Notes: generated from the sequence alone by a model not told the origin. Shown: positions 1 through 19,226, numbered from the stretch's first letter. The stretch is 20,000 nt of DNA from an uncultured virus (IMG/VR IMGVR_UViG_3300043395_001428) (IMGVR_UViG_3300043395_001428), one strand, 5' to 3'. Translations and numbers: made by a program.

Positions 1-941
1 GAGAGTTCTGTGAACGGTATTCGTCTGAGTTCGTACCACGGCCCTTGTATCGCATTTACTGCTGAAGTAGCACTTGAACCTGAAAATGACGTGGCATAGA
101 TGATATATCCCGTCGCCTTTGACGGTGGGGCAGAGGTCGAACCAAAATTGAAACTAAACGTCGAATTAGCGGCTGTGATCTGATACCCTGTGGTTCCGCC
201 TGACAATAACGTGGCAGTAGGATTTCCGTACCCATTTGTAATATCCGAGTAGTAGGCTATCCGAAACGAATAATACCCTGCGGACATATTCTTCGTGCCG
301 CCCGACCCGACTACCGTGATAGCAGAGTTCACCGTATTTGGCGCGGCATCAAACCCTAGTTCTTCCACTGAGTAATTATTCGATGCTGAGTCGTACAGTG
401 CTATCTGCGCACGTCTCGTTGCTACCAACGATTCTCCTGCTAACACAGCACCGTTCACATACAATGCACCGTCACCTACTGCAATGATATTGCCCTTGTC
501 TGTAAGAGTCGCGTTACCCCATAGTAAAGACGCTCTTTTCGTGTCAAGCGAGAATATTCCCGGCACTCGATAACCTGTTGTACTTGCTGTCGTCGTGGTC
601 GGGGGCAGATACGTGGTGAATTGTGTTTGTGAATCAATGGATTGTACTACAAGCGGTCTATCCCCGACGATATGCACCATTTGACCAAAATGCAGTTCAT
701 CTTGGAAAGCCGTCCCTGTTCCTGTAATGACATTTGACGCGGGACTAAATGCGAGAGTTCCTGTTAAGGCAACAGCGGGTATCGGTTCACCTAAGTTCTC
801 TGACCCGTTATATGCCGCATAAAACTGCCTGCCGGGAACGCCTCTCAATAACATATTCTGTCCGCGATAGATGGTCTGCTCGCTTCCTGTGATGGGCGAA
901 CTAGGCTTATATGGGACAGAAACTAATGTTGTTTCGGGCAT
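1..941 (-). CDS. Putative tail/virion structural protein (candidate tail hub or nozzle), truncated at the window edge
   Basis: Not in the ORF track. ATG at 941 opens a frame with no stop to the window edge (313 codons: MPETTLVSVPYKPSSPITGSEQTIYRGQNMLLRG...GPWYELRRIPFTEL). Rich in T/S/G/A and beta-strand-like, and follows the adaptor-like genes, where podovirus-type phages place the hub/nozzle gene. Confidence 0.7.
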   Translation of the reverse strand, partial: MPETTLVSVPYKPSSPITGSEQTIYRGQNMLLRGVPGRQFYAAYNGSENLGEPIPAVALTGTLAFSPASNVITGTGTAFQDELHFGQMVHIVGDRPLVVQSIDSQTQFTTYLPPTTTTASTTGYRVPGIFSLDTKRASLLWGNATLTDKGNIIAVGDGALYVNGAVLAGESLVATRRAQIALYDSASNNYSVEELGFDAAPNTVNSAITVVGSGGTKNMSAGYYSFRIAYYSDITNGYGNPTATLLSGGTTGYQITAANSTFSFNFGSTSAPPSKATGYIIYATSFSGSSATSAVNAIQGPWYELRRIPFTEL

Positions 942-957
942 AGCCTTATGATATAAT
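929..957 (+). promoter_or_regulatory. Sigma70-type promoter for the HNH endonuclease gene
   Basis: TTGTTT (929-934), 17-bp spacer, TATAAT (952-957) with an extended -10 TG at 949-950. It overlaps the ATG of the divergent tail gene. Confidence 0.6.
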
Positions 958-1036
958 AAATGCAGGTCGAAAGAAGTTGTCGCTTCCAACGACCCTGACC
1001 TTAATATTTTCTATCAAGGAGAAAACATCTTGGCTA
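958..1036 (-). ncRNA. Predicted cis-antisense RNA to the HNH endonuclease translation start (ends approximate)
   Basis: Minus-strand promoter TTGACC (1071-1066)-N17-TACGAT (1048-1043) lies inside the HNH ORF. The transcript would cover the start codon, the RBS and the hairpin at 963-997. Inferred only, and its terminator looks weak. Confidence 0.4.
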
Positions 1037-1716
1037 ATTCTAATCGTAAACTTATAAACCTTGTAGGTCAAACATTTGGACGTTTGACTGTTACGCAAGA
1101 AGTTAGCAGTCTGTTTCACGCAAGACGTGCGGCGAGTGGCAATATTGTGCAACAAAAGACTCGTAGATGGGAGTGTATATGTATCTGTGGAACTGTTTCT
1201 ATTGTTCGTCAAGGGAATCTGCTTAGAAAGCATACCACTAGCTGCGGATGCTTGGTTCGTGAACGCCTGAAAGAAGCATCCCAAACACACAGAATGAGTA
1301 GGACTCCTGAATATCGAGCTTGGGGTGCAATGTTTACTAGGTGTTATAACCAGAAGATTCCTAAATATAAAGATTATGGAGGACGTGGTATCACTGTATG
1401 TGATAGGTGGCACAAGTTTGAAAATTTTTGGGCTGATATGGGTAATCGGCCTAGTCCTAAGCATTCCCTTGACCGTATTGATGTAAACGGTAATTATGAA
1501 CCACAAAATTGCAGATGGACGACTATGATTGTGCAAGTAAATAATAAACGAACTAATCATTGGATAACTCTCGGTAATCTAACATTAACGATTGCCCAGT
1601 GGGCTAGAAAACTACAATTACATCCTTCTACGATTTATCGTCGGCTACATCATACAGACGACCCTGTTCAAATATTACGCCCATCGTGTCGTCCAACTAC
1701 GTTGGCAACGGTGTAA
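1030..1716 (+). CDS. Free-standing HNH homing-type endonuclease with C-terminal HTH
   Basis: Phage HNH-family motifs LVGQTFGRLTV, WECICICG, TTSCGC, YGGRGITVCDRW and SLDRIDVNGNYEPQNCRW..Q.NN, plus C-terminal TIAQWARKLQLHPSTIYRRL. TTG start with AAGGAG RBS. Opposite orientation to the surrounding operon. Confidence 0.9.
   Translation: MANSNRKLINLVGQTFGRLTVTQEVSSLFHARRAASGNIVQQKTRRWECICICGTVSIVRQGNLLRKHTTSCGCLVRERLKEASQTHRMSRTPEYRAWGAMFTRCYNQKIPKYKDYGGRGITVCDRWHKFENFWADMGNRPSPKHSLDRIDVNGNYEPQNCRWTTMIVQVNNKRTNHWITLGNLTLTIAQWARKLQLHPSTIYRRLHHTDDPVQILRPSCRPTTLATV
1043..1071 (-). promoter_or_regulatory. Antisense sigma70-type promoter inside the 5' end of the HNH gene
   Basis: TTGACC-N17-TACGAT on the minus strand. 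The -10 element sits at +14..+19 of the ORF. Confidence 0.55.
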
Positions 1717-2239
1717 CACCCTGAAGGGCTAGGGCTAAGGCAAGGATAACATCGTTTGCGGTTTGGTCTGACGGAAATGTAACAGTCGTTGTTACAGTAG
1801 GCGTAGACGGTACAGTAACGTATAGACTCCCCGTGTAAGGGTCGTTAGGTAACGGAGCAGTGTAGTTAAAAGTATCACCCGTGATATAGACATATCCTAG
1901 TTGTTCATAGTTCTGTCCGCTGTTGTAATCCGATGCGTATTCGTAATAAGTGATAAGACTGTCATCATCGTCGGCAAAATTCGCTTGTCGCAAGAACTCT
2001 CTCATCACGCCTGTCGGGACTGTACCTGTTCCTGATGTAATAGTCACCGTATGCTTTACTGTAATGTCCCTGACGAACTTAGGGTCTTTAGCCTTGCCTC
2101 TGTAGACGTTTGCGATGACGTGGGGCAAAAGAGCGAACAATCCGCCTCGCGCGTCAATAAACGCAGATGCGTTGGCATCTACACCACCCGCTTGCGTGGC
2201 AATCGTCCTTGCCCTTGAGAGTATTTCCGAAACATTCAT
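1697..2239 (-). CDS. Putative virion protein, adaptor/ring-like
   Basis: 180 aa. N-terminal helix (MNVSEILSRARTIA), beta-rich middle and C-terminal FP...VILALALAL helix, a layout typical of podovirus adaptor proteins. ATGA overlap with the upstream gene. Confidence 0.55.
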   Translation of the reverse strand: MNVSEILSRARTIATQAGGVDANASAFIDARGGLFALLPHVIANVYRGKAKDPKFVRDITVKHTVTITSGTGTVPTGVMREFLRQANFADDDDSLITYYEYASDYNSGQNYEQLGYVYITGDTFNYTAPLPNDPYTGSLYVTVPSTPTVTTTVTFPSDQTANDVILALALALQGVTPLPT

Positions 2240-2553
2240 TGAGCTAATCTGCGAAAGGCTTCTTTGGAATCAAGATATTCAGCCCCGTCAATATTGTCCA
2301 CCAACAGCTTCGATTGTGTCTGACATCCGTTGATGACAGCGTGTTCAATGACTTGCAATGGTTCAAAGGATACGACTTCTGCTATCTTACCGCCAAGCTC
2401 GAACTTCTCGCCTATCATTGGCAGATACTTAACTTCTTTTGCGGGTTTCGGTTTCACGGGAATCTCGAATGTGGTCTCAGGGTGTTCCTTTGCAAACTTC
2501 TTCGACACTATCTTTCCCGTCTCTGCTGATTTCGCTACTGTTTTCTTTGCCAT
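2236..2553 (-). CDS. Hypothetical protein with basic N-terminal motif
   Basis: 105-aa ORF tightly packed in the operon. N-terminus contains KSAETGKIVSKKFAKEHPETT. Confidence 0.7.
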   Translation of the reverse strand: MAKKTVAKSAETGKIVSKKFAKEHPETTFEIPVKPKPAKEVKYLPMIGEKFELGGKIAEVVSFEPLQVIEHAVINGCQTQSKLLVDNIDGAEYLDSKEAFRRLAQ

Positions 2554-2557
2554 AACT

Positions 2558-3268
2558 TTATCCTGCTGTCGTTTCCGTACTTGCTAATGGTGTGTTCGGC
2601 AGCCCCATTAACAACATCTGATACCCTTGCTGATACAGATTCATATCTACACCCGCAAGACCTGCGTTATCCGTCCAACCTACTTGTAGAGAGTTGCCAC
2701 ACACGCCGTTGACGTGCATATTTGCACACGCTTGCGGTAGAGGTGAATCTTCGTCAGCATCATAAGCCGCACTTTGCGTATCATAATCCCACACGCATCC
2801 TTGCAGATATGCTGTCGAACGTGTGTGCCTGAATTGATTTCCTGTCAGATTGTAGTTGTAAAGATTTACATTATTAAAGAAATCATCTTCGTAATCTGCC
2901 AATGTCTGTGTCGGCATCCACGTCAGCGGAGCGTTGGTATCTTCGTCCGCCGCTGAGTCGAACACTCCGACGAACTCCACACCATCATCGTCTACCGTTG
3001 GCGTTGAAGCTAGATTAGCTAACGCCTCACTGCGTCCATACAACAATGACCGAGCAGGATGCTGAGGGTTATTACCGATGACCTGAGCCATTTCCTTCTC
3101 GATCATCAATATCATATCCTTAAACGCACTCTTAGGAATTTCAGCCCCGTCTAGGGCGCTCGCCCACGCACCTGCATAGGCGGCTTCCAATGTGGCTTGG
3201 TCAGCGCCAATTATCTGTGCAAGGCGTAATGCCGCTTGGCGTTTAATTGTTAAATAGCTGTACGGCAT
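2558..3268 (-). CDS. Putative virion protein, adaptor/ring-like
   Basis: 236 aa, acidic, with helical N-terminus, beta middle and SPLPQAC...VNG near the C-terminus. Start abuts the upstream stop. Confidence 0.55.
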   Translation of the reverse strand: MPYSYLTIKRQAALRLAQIIGADQATLEAAYAGAWASALDGAEIPKSAFKDMILMIEKEMAQVIGNNPQHPARSLLYGRSEALANLASTPTVDDDGVEFVGVFDSAADEDTNAPLTWMPTQTLADYEDDFFNNVNLYNYNLTGNQFRHTRSTAYLQGCVWDYDTQSAAYDADEDSPLPQACANMHVNGVCGNSLQVGWTDNAGLAGVDMNLYQQGYQMLLMGLPNTPLASTETTAG

Positions 3269-3655
3269 CTATCCCCACGTCGCAGCGGTTTGCTGTGCCC
3301 AAACTTCGTTAATGTCCGCTGTCCCCTTGTTCTGAATACGGATGAACCCTGACAGCCTGACAAGCGTTGTCCACGTATAGACCGTATCCGTCGTTGCAGG
3401 CACGGACTCAAGAATGTACTCAGTGCTGAAATCGGGGTTGATGTCGTACATCACGTCAAAGGCGTCAGTTGTCGGCGCGGCGTCGAACAGCACATTAATC
3501 TCCGTCGCTAGTCCTGCGTTGACCGCGATGCCCATTGAGTAATCGTCATCGGGTATCACAGGGTCAGGTGTGCGCATTGACAGCCACACGGGTTCTTGAG
3601 GGTTCGATGATGCAAGGGTTAGTTGAAGCCCCTTACCGGGATAAAGTGTGGCCAT
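3269..3655 (-). CDS. Putative small beta-rich virion protein
   Basis: 128 aa with AAGGAG RBS upstream. Alternating beta-strand pattern ending GFIRIQNKG. Lies in the structural operon. Confidence 0.65.
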   Translation of the reverse strand: MATLYPGKGLQLTLASSNPQEPVWLSMRTPDPVIPDDDYSMGIAVNAGLATEINVLFDAAPTTDAFDVMYDINPDFSTEYILESVPATTDTVYTWTTLVRLSGFIRIQNKGTADINEVWAQQTAATWG

Positions 3656-3664
3656 AATTACTCC

Positions 3665-4402
3665 TTAGCAGTTCCAATCCTCCAGAAAGACGGGTTTTGG
3701 AATTGCGATACTTTTAATATATCTACTAAATAATGGTTCTTTGATCTGTAATTGATAATCGAACCCCATCATCAATTCTTTTCTCTTAGCGAGATTTTCT
3801 GCCTTGTCATCACTCCACTCAGTATATGGCAAGAGTGCCATTGCATTACGAAGTCTGACAAGTTCTGCGTGTTCGGGCAACTGTACCGCAGATGATAATG
3901 GGTCATTGACCCCGATGTACCCACTGAGATAGTGGATATTGTACGTCCAACTCGTCATTGGCTGAGGCTGAATCCTCACCATATAGTTCGAGTTGAGTAC
4001 GCCTGAGCGATAGAATGACATCCGTTCAGGCGTTTCCGTTACCCACGGTAAAGTCCCGTATGACCCCATATAATACTGCCATACAGTGCCGTAATCTAGA
4101 TCGTCAACGTCGGAGAACGGAACGTTCACATACCTGATGTAAGGGTCGCCCTGTATTCTTTCAACATACAAGACTTTACCGAAGTCCTCTGCGTTTATCG
4201 TGTAGGTGTCTTGCCCTACAATGTAGTTCAATTGATAGGTTGATATCGCCCACGGTTTTGCTGAGTTATTGGTCGCGTTGACAATATCCATCTCAGTTGA
4301 TATTTCCTGTCTAAGCAACTGATGGAAACTAGGGCGATTGGGCAACGGATTGTCCAATAAGTCCCTAGTCCTGAAGATTTGTTCAATACGACTTACACTC
4401 AT
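3665..4402 (-). CDS. Putative head-tail adaptor protein
   Basis: 245 aa. GQDTYTINAEDF, VRIQPQP and QLPEHAELV match the G..Y.l..Df / i.P.P / lPe pattern I recognise in podovirus-type adaptors. Lies downstream of the capsid gene. Confidence 0.65.
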   Translation of the reverse strand: MSVSRIEQIFRTRDLLDNPLPNRPSFHQLLRQEISTEMDIVNATNNSAKPWAISTYQLNYIVGQDTYTINAEDFGKVLYVERIQGDPYIRYVNVPFSDVDDLDYGTVWQYYMGSYGTLPWVTETPERMSFYRSGVLNSNYMVRIQPQPMTSWTYNIHYLSGYIGVNDPLSSAVQLPEHAELVRLRNAMALLPYTEWSDDKAENLAKRKELMMGFDYQLQIKEPLFSRYIKSIAIPKPVFLEDWNC

Positions 4403-5619
4403 TGATTATGTTGGAAACAACGGGTCTCTCCCTCTCTAAGCTCACGCTTACACGCTTCACCATTAGCCTTAATCGCCCCACAAGTACCAATCATTGCCCC
4501 CATTGCTGTGAGGTTACTCACGGTAGGTTCTTCCTCTACAGACGGCGTGTAATACGCCTTTACAGGTTCCGCCTTCCGCATCCCAAGCCGAATCTCTTCA
4601 TCAATGTCACGCTCTCTCAGTCCTGCAACTATCTCAGCCGTGTACTGCTTGCGTTCTTCGAGCAAAAGTGCCTTCATTGACGCTTCATCAGTACCAAGTT
4701 CCTTCTTAGCAATAATCTCAGCAAGTCTGTTCACTGCACTATCGTCACCTGCAAGCAAGTCGCTCTTTCTGCGAGTGCCTGTCTGTGCCAAGAGCAGTTC
4801 TGACGCATCCGAGTTGCGTACATCCGTCTGACCTTTATCGAACGCGGTTTTGTAGATGACCTCATCGCCTTTGATGGTGTTCAACCCGTGGCGTTGGAAC
4901 TCTGCTACCGATCTCAGCATATCCCTTGCGATAGATTGATACTGTGTCTGTAATGACGGAGGCAACATCGCAATGTCAGCACGTCTTGCGTGAATATGGG
5001 CTTCCATTGCCTTTGCCGTGTTGGGCAGTTCCGCAACGCCGTTCTTAATATCTTCCCAATTCGGGAAAAAGAACAGTTGGACTTGTTCGATCTCCTCACG
5101 GCTTGCACCTTTGAGTGCTTCGACCTCTACCGTTCCGCCAATACCGTGCGGTACGGTTCGCTGTGTCGCTTTACGTGCATCGTGACCGGGATAACGTTTG
5201 TGAAAGACCAAGTGATTCGACCGTCTGTTCTTGAACACGCCATCTTCTTTGATCGAACGCATATCGCTTTCTAAGAATCCCTGTACGGTCTTTGGCTGTC
5301 CATTGACCGTCTGCGTGAACGACCGTGCAAGCTGCGAACGCATCTCAGGCGGAACCATCATCTCCCAATCCCCGACAGGCGTGAACGCAGGCAATTGAGT
5401 GAACATACAGCGGTAAAGCATATACTTCGACTCTCTCAAGCCGGGGATATGAGGTAGATGTATTCCCCCAAAGCTTTTGAACGGCAGTTCATATTTCTCT
5501 GCATCTGTAATGGCATCCATTGCCATAAACAGAACGCGGGGAATCTGTGCGTCTGCGTCCTCATTAAGAACGACAGGGCTGTTTACGACGGTACTTGTTG
5601 GTATCTGTGCATTTATCAT
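4399..5619 (-). CDS. Hypothetical protein with C-terminal CCCH Zn-finger
   Basis: 406 aa with ATGA overlaps at both ends. Ends CGAIKANGEACKRELREGETRCFQH (C-x9-C-x10-C-x2-H). Confidence 0.75.
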   Translation of the reverse strand: MINAQIPTSTVVNSPVVLNEDADAQIPRVLFMAMDAITDAEKYELPFKSFGGIHLPHIPGLRESKYMLYRCMFTQLPAFTPVGDWEMMVPPEMRSQLARSFTQTVNGQPKTVQGFLESDMRSIKEDGVFKNRRSNHLVFHKRYPGHDARKATQRTVPHGIGGTVEVEALKGASREEIEQVQLFFFPNWEDIKNGVAELPNTAKAMEAHIHARRADIAMLPPSLQTQYQSIARDMLRSVAEFQRHGLNTIKGDEVIYKTAFDKGQTDVRNSDASELLLAQTGTRRKSDLLAGDDSAVNRLAEIIAKKELGTDEASMKALLLEERKQYTAEIVAGLRERDIDEEIRLGMRKAEPVKAYYTPSVEEEPTVSNLTAMGAMIGTCGAIKANGEACKRELREGETRCFQHNQ

Positions 5620-6518
5620 TGAAATCTGTCCTCATCTTGGGCATCAAGTGCCCCCTTGTATATGTGTTCTAGTTCCTTATGTGTTTTGGTAGTCCCGATA
5701 AGTTCAGGGATGTTGCCAAAAAACGCTTCCGAATTAGCAAGCATTATGTCTTTGACCCTTTGTGCCTGCTGTTGCTTGGCTTTCTCAATAAAGTGGCGCG
5801 TACTTGCCGCACCGTCCATCAACACTTTTCTGCTTCTCTCAGCGTCGTTTCTCTGTACAACGCCTGCTCTGTCCATATTTTCCCTTATCGTGCGGACATA
5901 AGCAATATCTTTATCTGACGGCAACCGATATTTACCGTAACAAATCTTATTCACCGCAAGCATTTTCTCACAACACGGCGGAATGTCGCCAAAGACTATT
6001 GTCTCATCGTGTTCTGCGATTATCTTGAGGTGTTGATACATAAACTCAGGCGGCTTCTCAGGGCGAATGTGCGTCTTTACACCGTGATGTAGTACCGTGC
6101 TTGCTTCTTCCCAACTCGCTTCTAACTGTGAGCCGTGCAAGACTTCCATTAGAAGCCAACGCGGTGCGGAAATGTAAATATAGTCCTTGTCATTAACGGG
6201 CAGTTCTGCAAATAACAAAGGTGGCTTCCTTTCGATGTCACCATTCTCATTCAAGAATACGTCCCCGTAACGCCTGTCCCCGCTCCACGCGAGTACGATA
6301 GCATTGGGCGCTCCAAAAGCGGAGTCTAATCTCTTTTGGAAGTCGGCTATCTCGGCAGGCGTCCACGGGGGAGTCTTGAAGTCACCCTTCAGCCAATTGT
6401 TAATATCATCGTAAACGGCTGGCTTAAACTGCTTGAGTTTAGCTTTTGCCGTAGCAATAATTTGCTGTTCTCGTGCTAGGTCTGCCTGTCGCATTTTGCT
6501 TTCTTTTTTCCGATTCAT
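5616..6518 (-). CDS. Hypothetical protein (post-capsid)
   Basis: ORF track gives 5616..6536. The ATG at 6518 overlaps the endonuclease stop (ATGA) and is the more likely start, giving 300 aa. Confidence 0.75.
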   Translation of the reverse strand: MNRKKESKMRQADLAREQQIIATAKAKLKQFKPAVYDDINNWLKGDFKTPPWTPAEIADFQKRLDSAFGAPNAIVLAWSGDRRYGDVFLNENGDIERKPPLLFAELPVNDKDYIYISAPRWLLMEVLHGSQLEASWEEASTVLHHGVKTHIRPEKPPEFMYQHLKIIAEHDETIVFGDIPPCCEKMLAVNKICYGKYRLPSDKDIAYVRTIRENMDRAGVVQRNDAERSRKVLMDGAASTRHFIEKAKQQQAQRVKDIMLANSEAFFGNIPELIGTTKTHKELEHIYKGALDAQDEDRFQ

Positions 6519-7210
6519 ATAGTAACGTGACGCCACGCCTCTCGGTAAGTAATGGCATAAATTAAAGAAACGCTTACATTATATTTTTTAGCCATTGATC
6601 TAACATGTAACGTCCCCTCTTGTTGTTGGCGTAATATGTCTCGAACTTTTTCTTCATTTAACTTTGCTTGCGTGCTTTGTTCGCCAATGATTTTTGATTC
6701 TGGTTTGGTACACCAATGATGTAACCGTCCTTTTCGTGGAGGCAGTTTTGTTTTCATAGGCTGTGGGGGCATTTGCTTTTCTACTCGTATTAGGTAATCT
6801 AAAGCCCGCTTAACCCCTTCAATAGAATCCCCCAATCCGCCAAGTCCCGTGTTACATGTAGAACATAAAAGTCCTCTAATTTGTCCTGTTTCATGACAAT
6901 GGTCTACTCGTAACCGCTTCCCATCGCGAGATTCATACCCACATATTGCACAAGCTCCATGTTGAGAAGCCAATAAATGTTCGTAATCTTCAATCCGCAT
7001 ACCATATCGGCTAAATAAATGTTGGTCACGTGACCGATTGGGGTCTTTCTCTTTATGCCACCTTGCCCTAGCCTTAGCTCTCAAACACATTTTACATTGA
7101 CCGTCTCGCCCATGAGCGTTTTTACCTGCTTTTGCAAATATACGGAACTCGTCTAAGGGTTTAGTTACCTTGCAACACGAACACGCTTTTTCTACAATTG
7201 GATTAGTCAT
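6515..7210 (-). CDS. Free-standing endonuclease VII-type (His-Me finger) nuclease with C-terminal HTH module
   Basis: YG...DYE.LL..Q.G.CAIC, VDHCHETGQIRGLLCSTCNTGLG and ALDYL form the EndoVII signature. N-terminal Zn module CSCC..KPLDEF..CKMC. C-terminal GEQSTQAKLNEEKV...MAKKYNVSVSLIYAI....WRHV. GAGG RBS. Confidence 0.9.
   Translation of the reverse strand: MTNPIVEKACSCCKVTKPLDEFRIFAKAGKNAHGRDGQCKMCLRAKARARWHKEKDPNRSRDQHLFSRYGMRIEDYEHLLASQHGACAICGYESRDGKRLRVDHCHETGQIRGLLCSTCNTGLGGLGDSIEGVKRALDYLIRVEKQMPPQPMKTKLPPRKGRLHHWCTKPESKIIGEQSTQAKLNEEKVRDILRQQQEGTLHVRSMAKKYNVSVSLIYAITYREAWRHVTI
7170..7198 (+). promoter_or_regulatory. Antisense sigma70-type promoter inside the 5' end of the EndoVII gene
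   Basis: TTGCAA (7170-7175)-N17-TACAAT (7193-7198). The -10 element sits at +13..+18 of the ORF. Confidence 0.6.
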
Positions 7211-7275
7211 TTCAATACCTCGTTTATTGATCTAAGATTAGGAATTGGGAAGTGCTTATAACACTTCCCTTTTCC
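7205..7275 (+). ncRNA. Predicted ~70-nt cis-antisense RNA to the EndoVII translation start (ends approximate)
   Basis: Bounded by the promoter at 7170-7198 and the hairpin GGGAAGTG-cttataa-CACTTCCC followed by TTTT (7247-7273). Complementary to the ATG and RBS. Confidence 0.5.
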
Positions 7276-7281
7276 GTGTTT

Positions 7282-7310
7282 ATGTTATCACACAATGTGA
7301 TTAGATTCAA
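7282..7310 (-). promoter_or_regulatory. Sigma70-type promoter for the EndoVII gene with a palindrome in the spacer
   Basis: TTGAAT-N17-TAACAT with extended -10 TG. Inverted repeat ATCACA-N3-TGTGAT at 7287-7301. Confidence 0.55.
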
Positions 7311-7366
7311 TCGCTAAATGCTTTGTTCTCTATCACTTGCGTCAAACCCAAAGTTAGTTGATACAA

Positions 7367-8668
7367 CTAACCTGCCGTTACCTGAGTTGTACCCGATGTG
7401 AGTGCTGCTCTAATAATCAACGCCGATGCGTAGTTACCGTCGCTCTTATTACCATCGCCCGCATCGAATCCGAAATTATAATAACGTCTAACCTGTTCGA
7501 ACCAAGCATCCGCACCGACGTTGTTATAACCCGCCGACTGACGCAGTTTCAGACCGTCTCTGTTGACCGTACCCATAGGGGTAAGTTCAAAACAGAAGTA
7601 ATCTGACCGTCTACGACAATACACGCGATCTTCGTCCATATCGGCGTCTACGATGAACAAGCAATCGCCGTCGATATACTTCTCAGGGTATCCATACGAT
7701 GTGGTTGCCTGACCGTCTGCTGCCTGATACTGACGAGCACCAAAGCCTTGAATGGCTAGGGTGTTGTACTGTCCCGGTGGCAAGTGGCAAATGCGGTTGA
7801 AGTCTTTCGTCGGCGTATTCATACGAATCTGGACTTTCGTTTTGAGCGTATTGATAGTAGCCGATGTCAGAGCGCTGCCGTTGAGGTCAACCTGTGACGA
7901 GTTGAACTCTTGGTAGTTGGTGGTGTCGAGTCCCTGAAACACGCGATCTGCACTGTTAATGAGATACGCAAGTCCGCGAGGAACTTTGTTGAACGCACCC
8001 TGTTCCACGACAAATGCACCGCTGTTATTAACGCTACCTGTGGTGGTACAGGTAACGGTAGCGGAGTTCGTGCCGTTCTGCGTCGGGGTCATCGTTCCGA
8101 CAACTGCGAACGAAGATTCGTCCACAACATCATAGACCACGTTCTTGCAGAGACGGTGTGCGCCTTTGGTGTAGCCAGCGACGGTCGAAGCAGCTGTGGT
8201 TCCTGTGAACGTACCGCCTGTGTTCGAGGTCGTAACTGCGAGAATACCGTAACCATAGTTGTCGCCAATGGCGTAATAGTTAAGGTGCTTCATGTAGTTC
8301 TCAATGGCGAGACGACGAGTCTGAGCATAGTTGATAAGACTTGCTTCAGTGTCCATCGTGTCCATCAAGATACCATCGGTGTACATTGCCTTGCCGGGGT
8401 ATGCCAAACCAACCCACATCGAGGCTGATTCGGGTGCAACAGGGTCGGTAAAGCTGTTACCTGATGCTCCGGGGGCGAGGTACGAGTTCTGACCGTAGTC
8501 AGTGGTAAAGAACGGGAGTTGGAATCCCTGTTGTCCGCCTTTTCTCGTTCGAGTTGATTTATCGAACGAATCGTAGGTCGGGGTCATATACTCACGGATG
8601 GTCGCAACTTCACGTTTGATCTGTTGTGCCTGAGTATCTGGTAGATTACTAAATTCTACTTCTGCCAT
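7367..8668 (-). CDS. Major capsid protein (HK97 fold, probable insertion domain)
   Basis: 433 aa, directly after the portal and scaffold genes, with AGGAG RBS. Segments LNYYAIGD..G, PRGLAYLI and DADMDEDRVY fit capsid proteins, and there is a T/G/S-rich central insertion. Confidence 0.85.
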   Translation of the reverse strand: MAEVEFSNLPDTQAQQIKREVATIREYMTPTYDSFDKSTRTRKGGQQGFQLPFFTTDYGQNSYLAPGASGNSFTDPVAPESASMWVGLAYPGKAMYTDGILMDTMDTEASLINYAQTRRLAIENYMKHLNYYAIGDNYGYGILAVTTSNTGGTFTGTTAASTVAGYTKGAHRLCKNVVYDVVDESSFAVVGTMTPTQNGTNSATVTCTTTGSVNNSGAFVVEQGAFNKVPRGLAYLINSADRVFQGLDTTNYQEFNSSQVDLNGSALTSATINTLKTKVQIRMNTPTKDFNRICHLPPGQYNTLAIQGFGARQYQAADGQATTSYGYPEKYIDGDCLFIVDADMDEDRVYCRRRSDYFCFELTPMGTVNRDGLKLRQSAGYNNVGADAWFEQVRRYYNFGFDAGDGNKSDGNYASALIIRAALTSGTTQVTAG

Positions 8669-14012: not shown

Positions 14013-14227
14013 TGGTAGATTGTGCCACAATGGTCGCAGTTGTCCCGATGTCTTTTCACAGGGGCGGAACAGTTTACACAATTGGCAGAACGTACGCTTG
14101 GCACGTCAACGGTCTTGTTAGTTAAAGTATCGTATTGTCGCGTTGCATACCCCATTATCGCAGGCGTGAAATGCGTGACATCCAACGCTTGTGCTAAAAT
14201 CCTGTCCCAATTTTCTTGATTTATCAT
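14009..14227 (-). CDS. Small Zn-ribbon protein (72 aa)
   Basis: ATG at 14227 just after the terminase stop. C-terminal CVNC-x10-CDHC. Confidence 0.65.
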   Translation of the reverse strand: MINQENWDRILAQALDVTHFTPAIMGYATRQYDTLTNKTVDVPSVRSANCVNCSAPVKRHRDNCDHCGTIYQ

Positions 14228-14228
14228 T

Positions 14229-16499
14229 TCACTCCCAATCGAACTCCTCTTCCAACTCATCTAGTCCCAACGTCATTTTCGCAAGTTCTTCCTCGAACTC
14301 ATACGCAATAGCCGCGCTGAATTTCTGACCTGCTGTGGTAGCCGTTGCTACTGCCATTTTTGTTTCTTCGGGTATCACTTGATAAATCTTTTCATCAGGC
14401 GTCATCCCCGTCGAACGTGTACGAAACTTATGACATATCATTCGCAGGCATTCTGACACAGATGCAGACTTGCTAGGCTTCCCTTTGTCTGTGTATGCCC
14501 ACGTTTTCACTTCTTGTCGTAAAGCAATCAATCCCTTAGCATCTCTAGCCTGTATCGTCTGATTATCGTTGACTACAGCAGATAATCTATCAGGCTGAAA
14601 ATACCAATTCATATCCACAATGCCTGCAAACTCATCTTCTTTGAAGAGCCTGACACCATAACTGAGTTTTTGTCGAATTACTGCTTGAAATGTATCAGAT
14701 TCAGGATGAAGCCAGATAACAGACGCTTGAGGATTCACGCACCATTCCTTCAATGTCGCATCAAGCCACGCAAATAGATAATGGTAATCAGCGGTATAGT
14801 CTTTGTACTCAGCAAGGATAAATAACGAGTCTACGCCCGTAATTTGGGGTGAACGGGCTACAATAACGCCCCCATTTGCCCGATTTGCTTCAGGCGTAAT
14901 ATGCAAACCTACATACACCGTCCATTTTGCAGGAATTTTCTCGCCAAACTGTCCCACAAATGCCGTTTTTGTCAATAATGGCAACGGATTTTGGATAATC
15001 AAGCCTTTAGCGACCCGTTCCGCACATTCGTTATACCCGTCTGACCCTGCATCTACACAATCATCGTTATCCGACAGCGGAAAGTTGCGAAATTCCTTCT
15101 TCACTTCCTTGTTCCACTCCGCTTTAGCAAACGACACCTGCCCTTGATTCATTGCAGATGCTAATGCGTCAGCTCTGCGTGCTTTTGAACCTGTTGTGGC
15201 TCTTTCTACGACCTGATACCCCTCTAAAAGCTGTTGAATGTGAAAAACAGCGGTGTTGCCTGCCGCACCGGGGTCATTAGGAATGGAAATGACTACCTCA
15301 AAGCCGTCTTTTTGAGCAGTAGCGAGTTGCAACTTGTCGCGTCCTGCGGAATCCACTTGTTCCCTGACCACATCAAACAATGTTGCCTGTTTGTCTGCCG
15401 ACATCCCCCACAGTTCGCCCACTGAGTAGTCGCCACCTTCTTCCGTTGCCGCCAAATCCCACGACCGAACAAAGACCGAACATTCTGCACGCCTTTGTTC
15501 TGTTTCTTCTTCTGACAGTTCAACGATCTGCCCGACATTAAAGAACTCGCCCTCTTCTGACGACGGACGACCTTGATTCATTGAACTAAAAACGCGATTG
15601 TTCTTGCGAACTTCGTCATAATACTCAGGCAATCGACGCTCAGAGATGTATTCACCGATTTCACGTCCTAAAGGATCGGGGTATCTCTGTCCCGTCTCGT
15701 CGTGAATGTAGTCCCCGTCGCAAACAGTGGCATAGCGCCAATAATCGAATGAGCCTTTATCGAGTAAATATCCTGCTAAATCTTCAACGTGATACCTGTG
15801 GAACATCCCAAAGACGTTCGTGTACGTGCCCATACGGGACATCACGGTAAAATCCCAAAATTCTTGTAAATGGTTGCGAGTCGTTTCTGAGAATGCTTCT
15901 TTTTGGTCGGCATACGGGTCATCAATGATAAGGTCATCAAATCCCGAACCTGTTAGCCCCGACTGTAAGCCTACGGGATTAAACGAGTCTTGTCCGTCAT
16001 TTAACTCTATTCTTGCCGCCGTAGACCACTTCTCTTTCGACGCTTTCTCGTCTACCCACCCATCTTTATTTGGGAATATCTGCTTATGAATAGGCAGATT
16101 CATTATTCCTATAACTGTTTTCGAGTGTCGTTGGCTTCGTGTGACGTTATAAGTGGCTAGGGCGATTCGGTGAAGAGGCAGATGTCCCAATAACCACGCA
16201 GGGTATGCTTGGGCGAGAATGGAAGACTTCCCTAATTGCCCTTCAGCGTGGATGATAGCCCACTCTCGTTTAGTGGCACGATTCAATGAAGCATTCTGCA
16301 ACCGCTCACAAAAATCCTTTTGCCAACGATCAGTTCTGAGCCTTTTAATACGCTCAAAATATTCCACTAACGGAATTTGTATATAGAACGGTTTAGGAGC
16401 TAAGTCAATGTAGTCAATCGGCTGTGACCGAAAGGACGGAGGCAGTGGTTCTATCCCTGCTAACCTTGTTTGTGTCCTTAGTAGTTCATCCCATCCCAT
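14229..16499 (-). CDS. terL: Terminase large subunit with C-terminal extension
   Basis: Walker A EGQLGKS, Walker B LTGSGFDDLIIDDP, HRYHVEDLAG coupling region, and RNase H-like nuclease motifs RSWDLA...GDYSVG and DNDDCVDA. About 265 extra residues follow. Confidence 0.93.
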   Translation of the reverse strand: MGWDELLRTQTRLAGIEPLPPSFRSQPIDYIDLAPKPFYIQIPLVEYFERIKRLRTDRWQKDFCERLQNASLNRATKREWAIIHAEGQLGKSSILAQAYPAWLLGHLPLHRIALATYNVTRSQRHSKTVIGIMNLPIHKQIFPNKDGWVDEKASKEKWSTAARIELNDGQDSFNPVGLQSGLTGSGFDDLIIDDPYADQKEAFSETTRNHLQEFWDFTVMSRMGTYTNVFGMFHRYHVEDLAGYLLDKGSFDYWRYATVCDGDYIHDETGQRYPDPLGREIGEYISERRLPEYYDEVRKNNRVFSSMNQGRPSSEEGEFFNVGQIVELSEEETEQRRAECSVFVRSWDLAATEEGGDYSVGELWGMSADKQATLFDVVREQVDSAGRDKLQLATAQKDGFEVVISIPNDPGAAGNTAVFHIQQLLEGYQVVERATTGSKARRADALASAMNQGQVSFAKAEWNKEVKKEFRNFPLSDNDDCVDAGSDGYNECAERVAKGLIIQNPLPLLTKTAFVGQFGEKIPAKWTVYVGLHITPEANRANGGVIVARSPQITGVDSLFILAEYKDYTADYHYLFAWLDATLKEWCVNPQASVIWLHPESDTFQAVIRQKLSYGVRLFKEDEFAGIVDMNWYFQPDRLSAVVNDNQTIQARDAKGLIALRQEVKTWAYTDKGKPSKSASVSECLRMICHKFRTRSTGMTPDEKIYQVIPEETKMAVATATTAGQKFSAAIAYEFEEELAKMTLGLDELEEEFDWE

Positions 16500-16546: not shown

Positions 16547-17308
16547 TCAAGTAAAAAATAATGAAGATTGTGGTTCATAACTTTCAATAGTTCGATTAGC
16601 TACGTCCACGTATTCCCCATCAATCTCCGAACCTAGCCAATCCCTATCTAGTTCGATACACGCCTTTGCTACTGCACCACTTCCCATAAATGGGTCATAC
16701 ACCAAATCTCCAACATTAGAACTTGCCTCGATAAACCGTTTCATCAGTTCTACGGGCTTTTCAGACGGGTGATATTTATTACCGATGTAGTTAGGTATCT
16801 CGAATACAGTCTGTTCGCCAAGATTGTTGACCGACCGCGCAGGACGTTTAGACAACATTAAGATAAACTCCCCATTTTGCATAAAATATTTGTTTGGTGT
16901 GGCATTATTCTTTTTCCATACCAACAAATTCTGATACACAAATCCAACTTTTTCGGCTTCTATCTGCAAGTCTTTCAGATTACGCCCGTTAATCATCACA
17001 TAAGCGTGCGTAGACGGTTTTAAGACGCGATAGCACTCAGGTAGCCATTCGTGGAACTTAATGTCGTTGTGAGCGAACATAGCCCCATCTTTGACCGCAC
17101 TAGGACGTGATGCGTCGGCTTTTAGCCACTTGTTTGAGCAATTTGTTCCATCTGACGTGGTTTTGAATACACCACCTAGATTTTCCACTGTAATGCCCCC
17201 TGCAACAATCTTGTACGGGCAATCGGTCACGATTAAATCTACAAAAGCATCAGGCATCCGTACCATTGTATCTAATGCTGATTCGTGATGTATTTTATTC
17301 AACTCCAT
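16547..17308 (-). CDS. DNA methyltransferase, N4-cytosine/N6-adenine, beta class (no partner restriction enzyme visible)
   Basis: Motif IV DLIVTDCPY precedes HPSEKP and motif I YDPFMGSG. Also has RVLKP and GSEID. Confidence 0.93.
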   Translation of the reverse strand: MELNKIHHESALDTMVRMPDAFVDLIVTDCPYKIVAGGITVENLGGVFKTTSDGTNCSNKWLKADASRPSAVKDGAMFAHNDIKFHEWLPECYRVLKPSTHAYVMINGRNLKDLQIEAEKVGFVYQNLLVWKKNNATPNKYFMQNGEFILMLSKRPARSVNNLGEQTVFEIPNYIGNKYHPSEKPVELMKRFIEASSNVGDLVYDPFMGSGAVAKACIELDRDWLGSEIDGEYVDVANRTIESYEPQSSLFFT

Positions 17309-18573: not shown

Positions 18574-18767
18574 CCGATTATCTCCTCGTCCAACCCACCG
18601 TGTTCGCACCCACTTATGGCGTGCTTGGTCATCAGTTCTTGGATTTCCGCACTTACCAATATCGCGTAGGACTCAGCGAGAAGTTTTATGTCAGCAGGTG
18701 AGTGTACGTAATCTTCATTTCCAATGATGTCCTTTAATATCGCGTCTTTTGCTTCTTTTATGTCCAT
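18570..18767 (-). CDS. Small hypothetical protein
   Basis: 65-aa ORF in the tightly packed operon. Confidence 0.6.
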   Translation of the reverse strand: MDIKEAKDAILKDIIGNEDYVHSPADIKLLAESYAILVSAEIQELMTKHAISGCEHGGLDEEIIG

Positions 18768-19226
18768 ATTTGTGCTATAATCAATCAGTTATTTGACAAT
18801 TTCCGCCATATTACATCAGTTAAATCACACGTCACTGATTCGTGGCGGATTCGGAGTTCTTCCTGTAAAACAGCGTTAAATTTCTCGGCCTCGCTCGTAG
18901 GACACAAGGTATTGATCCTGTCTCTCGCAAAATCCGCCAAAATCGCTGTGTACATATGCACTATCTCGTGCACGACTTGAGATTCCTGCGCCGCGTCTTC
19001 CTCTTGCAACCACCCAGACGAAAAATCTAAGCAGATAGCACGATAATCATAGTTCACTTTTATCGCGATGCGTTCCCCATCCACTTCCGCATCCCATAGA
19101 TTGCAATGTACATTTTGTACCCAACTAGGGATCATCCATTCCCATTTAGTTAAATACTGACTAATCTTGTGCTTGTGGTCAGGACGAATATTCTTGTTAT
19201 ATGTAACGTGCATTTGTGCTATAATC
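18768..19226. repeat. 15-bp exact direct repeat ATTTGTGCTATAATC (18768-18782 and 19212-19226)
   Basis: Read directly. The two copies flank the HExxH gene. Confidence 0.85.
18785..19213 (-). CDS. Putative zincin-like metallopeptidase
   Basis: 142 aa with VVHEIVH (HExxH) and a downstream HES that may supply the third-ligand Glu. Confidence 0.7.
   Translation of the reverse strand: MHVTYNKNIRPDHKHKISQYLTKWEWMIPSWVQNVHCNLWDAEVDGERIAIKVNYDYRAICLDFSSGWLQEEDAAQESQVVHEIVHMYTAILADFARDRINTLCPTSEAEKFNAVLQEELRIRHESVTCDLTDVIWRKLSNN

Follow-up and report, generated by a model that had tools for sequence, protein, structure and literature searches.

The window analysed here is a 20,000-nucleotide (nt) stretch of DNA from an uncultured freshwater phage (IMG/VR IMGVR_UViG_3300043395_001428), representing its structural module, and it contains two predicted nuclease genes: an HNH-type gene (1030..1716, plus strand) and a gene of the Endonuclease VII (EndoVII) family (6515..7210, minus strand). 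Both are preceded by a leader with the same arrangement of promoter and hairpins, and sequence comparison indicates that this shared leader is real, that it is specific to nuclease genes, that it is conserved through compensatory changes and that it is a portable control module. An initial annotation of the window had proposed that the two genes share one antisense-RNA control cassette. The features it listed (promoters, H1, H2 and opposing promoters) are all present at both genes, at the positions given below, and the genes are indeed without evident similarity, their proteins being unrelated (BLASTP E = 8). The cassette, however, is shared in form and not in sequence: a specific 5' layout is common to the two genes, but the leaders are not copies of one another and, outside a short block where the open reading frame (ORF) starts, their sequences cannot be aligned.

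Read from the 5' end, the common order is a -10 element, 5-6 nt, a 35-nt hairpin (H1), a linker of 9-10 nt, a second stem-loop (H2), 1-4 nt and the start codon. The last base of the -10 and the start codon are separated by 72 nt at the HNH-type gene and 71 nt at the EndoVII gene. Transcription usually starts 7 nt from the -10, so H1 would stand at the very 5' end of the sense transcript. The HNH-type gene's own promoter has an extended -10 (TGaTATAAT, 949..957, plus strand), with TTGTTT at the -35 position (929-934; 3/6 consensus matches), and its predicted start at ~964 falls at the foot of H1 (963..997, either strand; -11.7 kcal/mol, z -2.85), which is followed on the minus strand by a U-rich tract. 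H2 (1007..1025, plus strand) has a 6-bp stem and a 7-nt loop ending in AGG (TTTTCT/ATCAAGG/AGAAAA) and contains the Shine-Dalgarno (SD) sequence AAGGAG (1016-1021). Facing this leader from within the ORF is a promoter-like site on the minus strand, TTGACC-17-TACGAT (1043..1071; 9/12 matches), whose -10 lies at ORF positions +14..+19 and whose predicted start lies at ~1036 (+6/+7). The RNA predicted from it (952..1036, minus strand; ~80-85 nt, -24.9 kcal/mol, z -3.5) would cover, and be complementary to, both hairpins, the linker between them and the first two codons.

The EndoVII gene repeats this arrangement in the opposite orientation. Its own promoter, TTGAAT-17-TGaTAACAT (7282..7310, minus strand), was read by eye; the promoter scan did not list it, though its 5+4 hexamer matches meet the scan's rule by count. 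H1 (7241..7275, either strand; -18.1 kcal/mol, z -6.2) starts at the predicted sense start, 7275, and read on the plus strand its inner part (7247-7269) followed by TTTTCC is the first-listed terminator-like site of the window. H2 (7212..7230, minus strand), TCAATA/AACGAGG/TATTGA, again has a 6-bp stem and a 7-nt loop ending in AGG, and contains the SD sequence GAGG (7221-7218) ahead of the ATG at 7210. The opposing promoter-like site, TTGCAA-17-TACAAT (7170..7198, plus strand), likewise matches at 9/12 positions with 17-bp spacing; its -10 is at ORF +13..+18 and its predicted start at ~7205, which is ORF +6. The corresponding RNA would run from ~7205 to ~7275-7281 on the plus strand (~71-77 nt; -22.3 kcal/mol, z -4.4).

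Such an arrangement is far beyond what chance would give. For scanning, the H2 motif was defined as a stem of at least 6 bp with a 7-nt loop ending in AGG and a start codon within 9 nt. Across both strands of the window (40 kb) the motif with its start occurs only at the two nuclease starts, compared with 0.64 occurrences per 40 kb, at any position, in shuffled sequence. A wider scan of 1.13 Mb, comprising fetched phage loci and the window, found it at eight places in seven families, and the full layout, with a -10 and H1 at the right distances, is present at three of these eight: the two window genes and one further HNH-type gene, on the IMG/VR contig of an unrelated phage that we call L017.

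The comparison with L017 provides the independent evidence that the layout is maintained. Its HNH-type protein is 39% identical to that of the window and lies among tail genes unrelated to the window's flanks, again in the opposite orientation to them, and its 10.3-kb record contains one leader only. That leader is ~55% identical to the window's, with a TACAAT at the same distance (5 nt) from the hairpin, a two-tier H1 at the same place and the same 72 nt from -10 to start codon. Nevertheless H1 is rebuilt from different bases, and H2 (TTCGCT/AAACAGG/AGCGAA) differs from the window's H2 by two double compensatory changes. The 26 nt after the first base of the start codon (1031..1056 in the window, either strand), which include the antisense -10, are identical between the two. 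The opposing site in L017 is TTGTCC-17-TACGAT, with its -10 likewise at +14..+19.

A closer relative, ~90% identical to the window over 800-2346 and 3266-6401, is represented by metagenome contigs from three studies, and its leader differs from the window's at 19 of 88 positions (942-1029). These changes fall in loops while the stems are kept. In H1, the C-G pair 968-991 becomes T-A, a compensatory change, the substitutions at 970, 971, 987 and 988 close an internal loop into three further pairs, and five of the six apex-loop bases are changed. The GTT-N3/4-GC apex that the initial annotation had singled out, present in both window hairpins and recurring in L017, is lost in this relative. The stem of H2 is untouched, with only the loop bases 1014 and 1015 changed, and no change is listed across 1016-1056. 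On the promoter side, T954 becomes C, leaving a -10 that is still good, and substitutions at 961 and 962 place five consecutive U directly after the antisense hairpin. Beyond the leader, the listed differences number about nine over the initial 228 nt of the ORF and 12 over 142 nt of the neighbouring tail-like gene. Taken region by region, divergence between window and relative is ~4% in the HNH ORF, 8-10% in the flanking phage genes and 22% in the leader.

A third context was found on another metagenome contig, where an 85-nt stretch corresponding to 952-1036, with two differences, stands between flanks that are both unlike the window. Its two ends correspond to the sense -10 and the predicted start of the antisense RNA. 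Ahead of the same -10 it has TTGAAT-18-TGc, which is a different -35 region, and downstream it leads into a different N-terminal coding sequence that still carries AATCGTAA. Since 952-1036 recurs between foreign flanks, the leader travels with the nuclease gene and is swapped between genes. The portability claimed in the initial annotation, which had spoken of a portable antisense repressor, is therefore borne out for the HNH-type gene, by L017 and by this stretch; the antisense RNA itself is a predicted one.

We next consider how such a module might work. The sequence and its comparisons show each nuclease gene as a self-contained and probably mobile expression unit under a control module of ~90-100 bp, which has a promoter dominated by its -10, H1, at whose foot the transcript would start, a 9-12 nt linker, the SD-bearing H2, a start codon 1-4 nt past H2 and a block conserved at the nucleotide level in the first ~20 nt of the ORF. 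This block would supply the -10 and start region of a promoter on the opposite strand, with a TTG-type -35 at a spacing of 17 bp, and transcription from it at ORF +6 would give an RNA of ~75-85 nt. Such an RNA would be fully complementary to the start codon, H2, linker and H1, and its 3' end would consist of the complement of H1 and a U tract overlapping the sense -10. Pairing with the mRNA would prevent ribosome binding or trigger decay, as for art200 of IS200 and RNA-OUT of IS10, and H2 would add a throttle on translation acting in cis. At the HNH locus, the antisense RNA and the leader of the tail-like gene may be one transcript, or the former a terminated form of it.

Several observations bear on the case for a dedicated antisense RNA. 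The beginning of the EndoVII ORF agrees with the HNH block at 12 of 16 anchored positions, allowing one gap, a likeness reached by 2 of 969 other ORF starts (p ~0.003), and because the two are in different reading frames it lies in the nucleotides and not in the protein. Promoter-like antisense matches with a -10 starting between +8 and +20 are found at 16 of 683 mechanically called ORF starts (2.3% per ORF); a same-offset site in two pre-selected genes is thus uncommon, but is no proof. The TACGAT of the window is kept at +14..+19 in L017 and also in the third context. At the antisense hexamers, codon choice is unremarkable with one exception: the EndoVII gene has TGC, the minority Cys codon, at the place where the -35 requires it. 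As for the predicted 3' ends, the EndoVII one is flagged as a hairpin followed by TTTTCC and the HNH one, on the minus strand, is U-rich only.

Transcription of the neighbouring gene bears on the same question. The tail-like gene starts at 941 on the minus strand, only 22 nt beyond H1, so minus-strand transcription must cross the HNH leader whatever promoter it uses. To judge from this arrangement, some antisense RNA over the HNH ribosome site late in infection is nearly certain, while a dedicated short RNA is putative. No gene of this kind adjoins the EndoVII module, which speaks against reading the opposing promoter simply as one that drives a host gene outward.

Against the antisense interpretation stand a number of observations. 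Promoter matches of 9/12 occur in the window at chance density (32, against 30.7 +/- 4.7 in shuffles), the L017 site scores 8/12, below the window's 9/12, and several unrelated homologues that lack the leader have antisense promoter-like matches at +8..+17. The opposing -35 hexamers lie on codons of conserved motifs, namely G-Q in the HNH-type family and, in EndoVII, Cys-Lys with the second Cys of CxxC. An AT-rich sense -10 placed 5-6 nt before H1 automatically produces a U tract behind the antisense hairpin, and expression of the tail-like gene would be reduced by a strong minus-strand terminator 22 nt ahead of its start. The evidence from G.U versus A.C appositions, counted by hand, points both ways. 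The antisense strand folds better than the sense strand by 5.8-7.0 kcal/mol for the window HNH leader and L017 and by 1.5 kcal/mol for the ~90% relative, and worse by 1.3 kcal/mol for EndoVII, but differences that large are met in 6-18% of arbitrary 67-nt control windows, and we rejected strand asymmetry of folding as evidence because it is not significant against these controls. None of the public sequencing runs matching the window is listed as RNA. Finally, the leader's known carriers are one independent homologue (L017) and close relatives only. Of 63 starts of HNH-type and EndoVII homologues, L017 alone shares the layout and the other 62 are without it; therefore it is specific to a small group and is no family trait. 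The antisense -10, for which the initial annotation had asked about positional conservation among homologues, keeps its position in L017 and in the third context.

An antisense RNA would account for most of the features of the module. Its support consists of consensus matches and of positions conserved across very few sequences, and we hold the proposal tentatively, at somewhat under an even chance. Another way to view the leader is as a purely sense-strand device, in which H1 stabilises the 5' end of the mRNA, and may damp read-through from upstream, while H2 tunes or hides the SD sequence. The conserved ORF start would then serve translation initiation, and the opposing sites would be by-products of AT-rich N-terminal codons followed by the conserved G-Q or Cys-Lys codons. 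This we regard as distinctly possible. The predicted sense start coincides with the first base of H1 in all three leaders, the covariation is compatible with a function on either strand, and hairpins at the ribosome-binding site (RBS) are established for homing endonuclease genes (PMC2988022); the lack of significant strand asymmetry, the chance density of promoter-like sites and the antisense matches in leaderless homologues, described above, also fit. However, a sense-only function leaves unexplained why 26 nt at the ORF start should be identical when the proteins are 39% and the leaders ~55% identical, why the EndoVII ORF start should resemble this block out of frame, and why the same -10 offset and 17-bp spacing should recur in three contexts. 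Furthermore, H2 in the window is weak, with six pairs per copy of which five are A-U or U-A.

Alternatively, the minus-strand site in the HNH ORF could be an outward promoter that restores expression of the tail-like gene downstream of the insertion, in which case the structured minus-strand RNA would be the leader of that gene and any effect on the nuclease would be secondary. The geometry suits this proposal: the HNH-type gene is opposite to the flanking tail genes both in the window and in L017, the distance from the HNH start to that of the minus-strand gene beyond it is 89 nt in the window and 130 nt in L017, and between H1 and the tail-like start there is no room for that gene's own promoter. 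Invading endonucleases can also bring in promoters that affect their neighbours or make antisense transcripts (PMC2988022). Yet the EndoVII module has an opposing promoter and no plus-strand gene for it to serve, and the hairpin and U tract, with five U in the relative, would terminate transcription just before the tail-like gene. We consider an outward promoter unlikely as the principal explanation. Least probable of all is that the two window leaders are alike by coincidence or convergence, with no common mechanism: they have no alignable sequence outside the ORF-start block, and the EndoVII leader is without a relative in any collection searched, but the restriction of the H2 motif in the window to the two nuclease starts, the agreement of spacings within 1-3 nt at every step and the ORF-start likeness (p ~0.003) all speak against it.

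Returning to the antisense interpretation, one extension would give the loops a role of their own. The leader could be a specificity-carrying antisense module with its loops as recognition determinants, such that elements with the same allele repress one another in trans during co-infection; we offer this as speculation and think it improbable. If true, diverged leader alleles would escape repression, which resembles plasmid incompatibility transposed to selfish phage nuclease genes. It would explain why the leader is shuffled between nuclease genes and why its loops turn over far faster than the ORF, and also why one phage carries two unrelated nucleases under the same architecture with different sequences.

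Among published layouts, the left end of IS200 (tnpA/art200) comes nearest, and the RNA-IN/RNA-OUT pair of IS10 is also close. IS200 tnpA is headed by two inverted repeats, a terminator-type hairpin and an SD-bearing stem-loop (PMC4513863), so that there, as here, a mobile element's own enzyme gene stands under two hairpins of which one bears the SD sequence. The systems differ in where transcription starts, which for tnpA is downstream of the IS200 terminator hairpin and here, by prediction, at the beginning of H1, and in that art200 has been observed and tested, whereas the antisense RNA here is predicted and the gene encodes the nuclease of a phage-borne element, not a transposase. RNA-OUT of IS10/Tn10 is a structured antisense RNA of 69 nt that pairs with the translation initiation region of the enzyme's mRNA (PMC5006887). 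Facing promoters and overlapping 5' ends are in common with the arrangement proposed here, and in IS10 changes to the sense promoter affect the stem of the antisense RNA because the two regions overlap (PMC5006887). However, the IS10 overlap is 35 nt and RNA-IN has no two-hairpin leader in the account cited, whereas the overlap predicted here is ~72 nt and takes in the whole leader.

The initial annotation had also drawn a parallel with SymE/SymR. The SymR promoter is embedded in the 5' part of the symE ORF, where synonymous changes silence it (PMC1891008), and the antisense promoters of both IS10 RNA-OUT and SymR lie inside the ORF, as do the candidate sites here (PMC5006887, PMC1891008). SymE itself is encoded on the chromosome, is induced as a toxin in the SOS response, has MazE-type antitoxins as its relatives and is controlled by LexA and Lon (PMC1891008), whereas nothing in the window points to SOS control or to a toxin-antitoxin pair, and the label of a type I toxin-antitoxin system is without support here.

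Phage nucleases themselves offer a further comparison. Control of the RBS by a hairpin is established for I-TevI, I-TevII, I-TevIII, segB and mobE of T-even phages and Aeh1, and seg43(25) has a stable hairpin just upstream of its RBS (PMC2988022). The T-even homing endonuclease genes have a late promoter within the hairpin itself, so that the RBS is free on the late transcripts (PMC2988022). These genes have in common with ours their own promoters and RNA hairpins at or before the RBS of a selfish phage nuclease gene. The nested promoter, by contrast, is absent here: the sole sense -10 of each gene is upstream of both hairpins, both of which would be transcribed, and no TATAAATA-type element (the T4-type late promoter) was seen by eye within H1 or H2. 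H2 also differs in leaving AGG in its loop and pairing only the 3' part of the SD sequence, with stems that are weak in the window and stronger in L017. An antisense RNA opposite a homing endonuclease gene has been observed in cyanophage S-PM2, where CfrI, of ~225 nt and without a known function, links the endonuclease gene to psbA (PMC2984593, PMC12197685); the passages available from these sources describe neither a two-hairpin leader nor a fixed-offset promoter for it. Our literature searches returned no description of a module such as the present one, and CfrI was the sole antisense RNA opposed to a homing endonuclease gene that turned up.

The significance of the arrangement lies in the balance that selfish nuclease genes must strike. 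They need enough expression to spread, without harm to the phage that carries them, and the published schemes for this control are mainly those of T4-type phages, with late promoters nested in RNA hairpins. Here, the proposed arrangement is a different one: two promoters of the sigma-70 type would face each other across a leader with two hairpins, and its closest parallel is the left end of IS200. The phage is not T4-like, and the two nuclease families that carry this layout in it are unrelated. Since the promoters resemble ordinary bacterial ones, the antisense idea can be tested from cloned fragments, without any need for phage culture.

Further searches with the leaders and ORF starts gave few matches. 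Neither leader matched an Rfam family (E up to 1), and neither the H2-plus-start pattern nor the EndoVII ORF-start 19-mer was found in viral contigs (0 matches each), nor the 20-mer of the HNH ORF block in genome contigs (0 matches). MAFFT alignments of the leaders were inconsistent with the structures. A pattern of SD sequence, start codon and AATCGTAA returned L017 again from viral contigs, together with one unrelated small-protein family that we took as chance: in the loci L117, L119 and L120 (~1490-1801), a protein of ~96 residues starting MAKSNRKM has AATCGTAA at the same offset and follows a GC-rich hairpin. In genome contigs it gave six matches inside unrelated ORFs, without the leader, three of which share one conserved N-terminal motif; these too were taken as chance. 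A homologue of the EndoVII gene in another locus, L001, has an antisense promoter-like site, and its upstream region folds no better than shuffles.

As to the setting of the two genes, nearly all genes of the window are on the minus strand, among them the large terminase (14229-16499), whose best match among phage records is 28% identical, a DNA methylase (16547-17308) and an adaptor-like gene (1697-2239). The HNH-type gene (228 residues, TTG start) is the sole plus-strand gene, placed between the stop of the adaptor-like gene, with which it is convergent and overlaps over 1697-1716, and the start of the tail-like gene (3..941, minus strand; phrog_24607, tail protein), from which it diverges. 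We take the true start of the tail-like gene to be the ATG at 941, which has the SD sequence AAGG; it is backed by the substitutions of the ~90% relative at 927, 930, 933 and 936, whose 3-nt period ends at 941. The EndoVII gene is co-oriented with the structural operon and overlaps the start of the following gene at 6536. Its product (231 residues; phrog_2633) belongs to PF02945, with a profile match over residues 64-140 of 79.2 bits against a cut-off of 23.6 (E 2.1e-22), and has an extra C-terminal region. Both predicted nucleases have DNA-binding tails, and their genes have a G+C content (41% for HNH-type, 41.7% for EndoVII) below the window's 46%.

The identity of the HNH-type protein is less direct. 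PHROG families named HNH endonuclease match it (phrog_374, E 8e-70), and a search for a Pfam HNH domain found no match at E up to 10. A family motif, D-R-I-D/N, was found in 22 of 38 homologue ORFs; it has Arg in place of the expected first His. In the alignment R149, Y156 and C161 do not vary, N160 hardly does, and eight Cys are fully or almost invariant. The AlphaFold model (mean predicted local distance difference test score 91.7) has as its best fold match the HNH restriction enzyme PacI (3m7k_A), a middling score at Z 6.2 with a root-mean-square deviation of 2.2 over 76 aligned residues; a Foldseek search of the PDB with the model found nothing at E up to 0.001, and a PDB search with the protein sequence gave noise only. 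We suggest with moderate confidence that the product is a PacI-like beta-beta-alpha-metal nuclease.

Relatives of the phage itself are scarce in the collections searched. Megablast and blastn found no close relative among phage records, the sole matches being coding similarity within the HNH-type ORF. Protein-seeded scans with the 433-aa gene and the adaptor-like gene (viral contigs) and with the 406-aa gene (metagenome contigs) gave no match, and the HNH protein matched 74 loci in metagenome contigs, all at no more than 59% identity. The metagenome relatives match the window as far as 6401 and then continue into unlike sequence, with the same loose end in two runs; this break is inside the N-terminal part of a 306-aa gene adjoining the EndoVII gene. 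Four runs searched over 6546-7400 gave no match except 35 nt in one, which says nothing on the presence of EndoVII in the relatives.

Several minor observations concern repeats and signals elsewhere in the window. Two perfect inverted repeats, 1243-1259/7498-7514 (17 nt) and 1115-1130/4979-4994 (16 nt), each have one arm in the HNH-type ORF and the other in a structural gene, and are same-sense in coding orientation; by a rough estimate, ~0.05 exact inverted matches of at least 16 nt are expected in 20 kb. On reading the two genes, the 17-mer is in different frames, and the ~90% relative differs at 1255 and 1257, inside one of its arms. Upstream of the EndoVII promoter, a hairpin at 7353..7372 (minus strand) spans the stop codon of the 433-aa gene and is followed on that strand by TTTGGGTTTG, making it a possible weak terminator. 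Lastly, a repeated motif, GATTATAGCACAAAT, stands on the minus strand at 18765-18781, 19211-19225 and ~14192-14200, directly before the ATG of small genes without an SD sequence. It may mark starts with a very short leader or none, or be a phage-specific signal, and its reverse complement is a perfect extended -10 on the plus strand.

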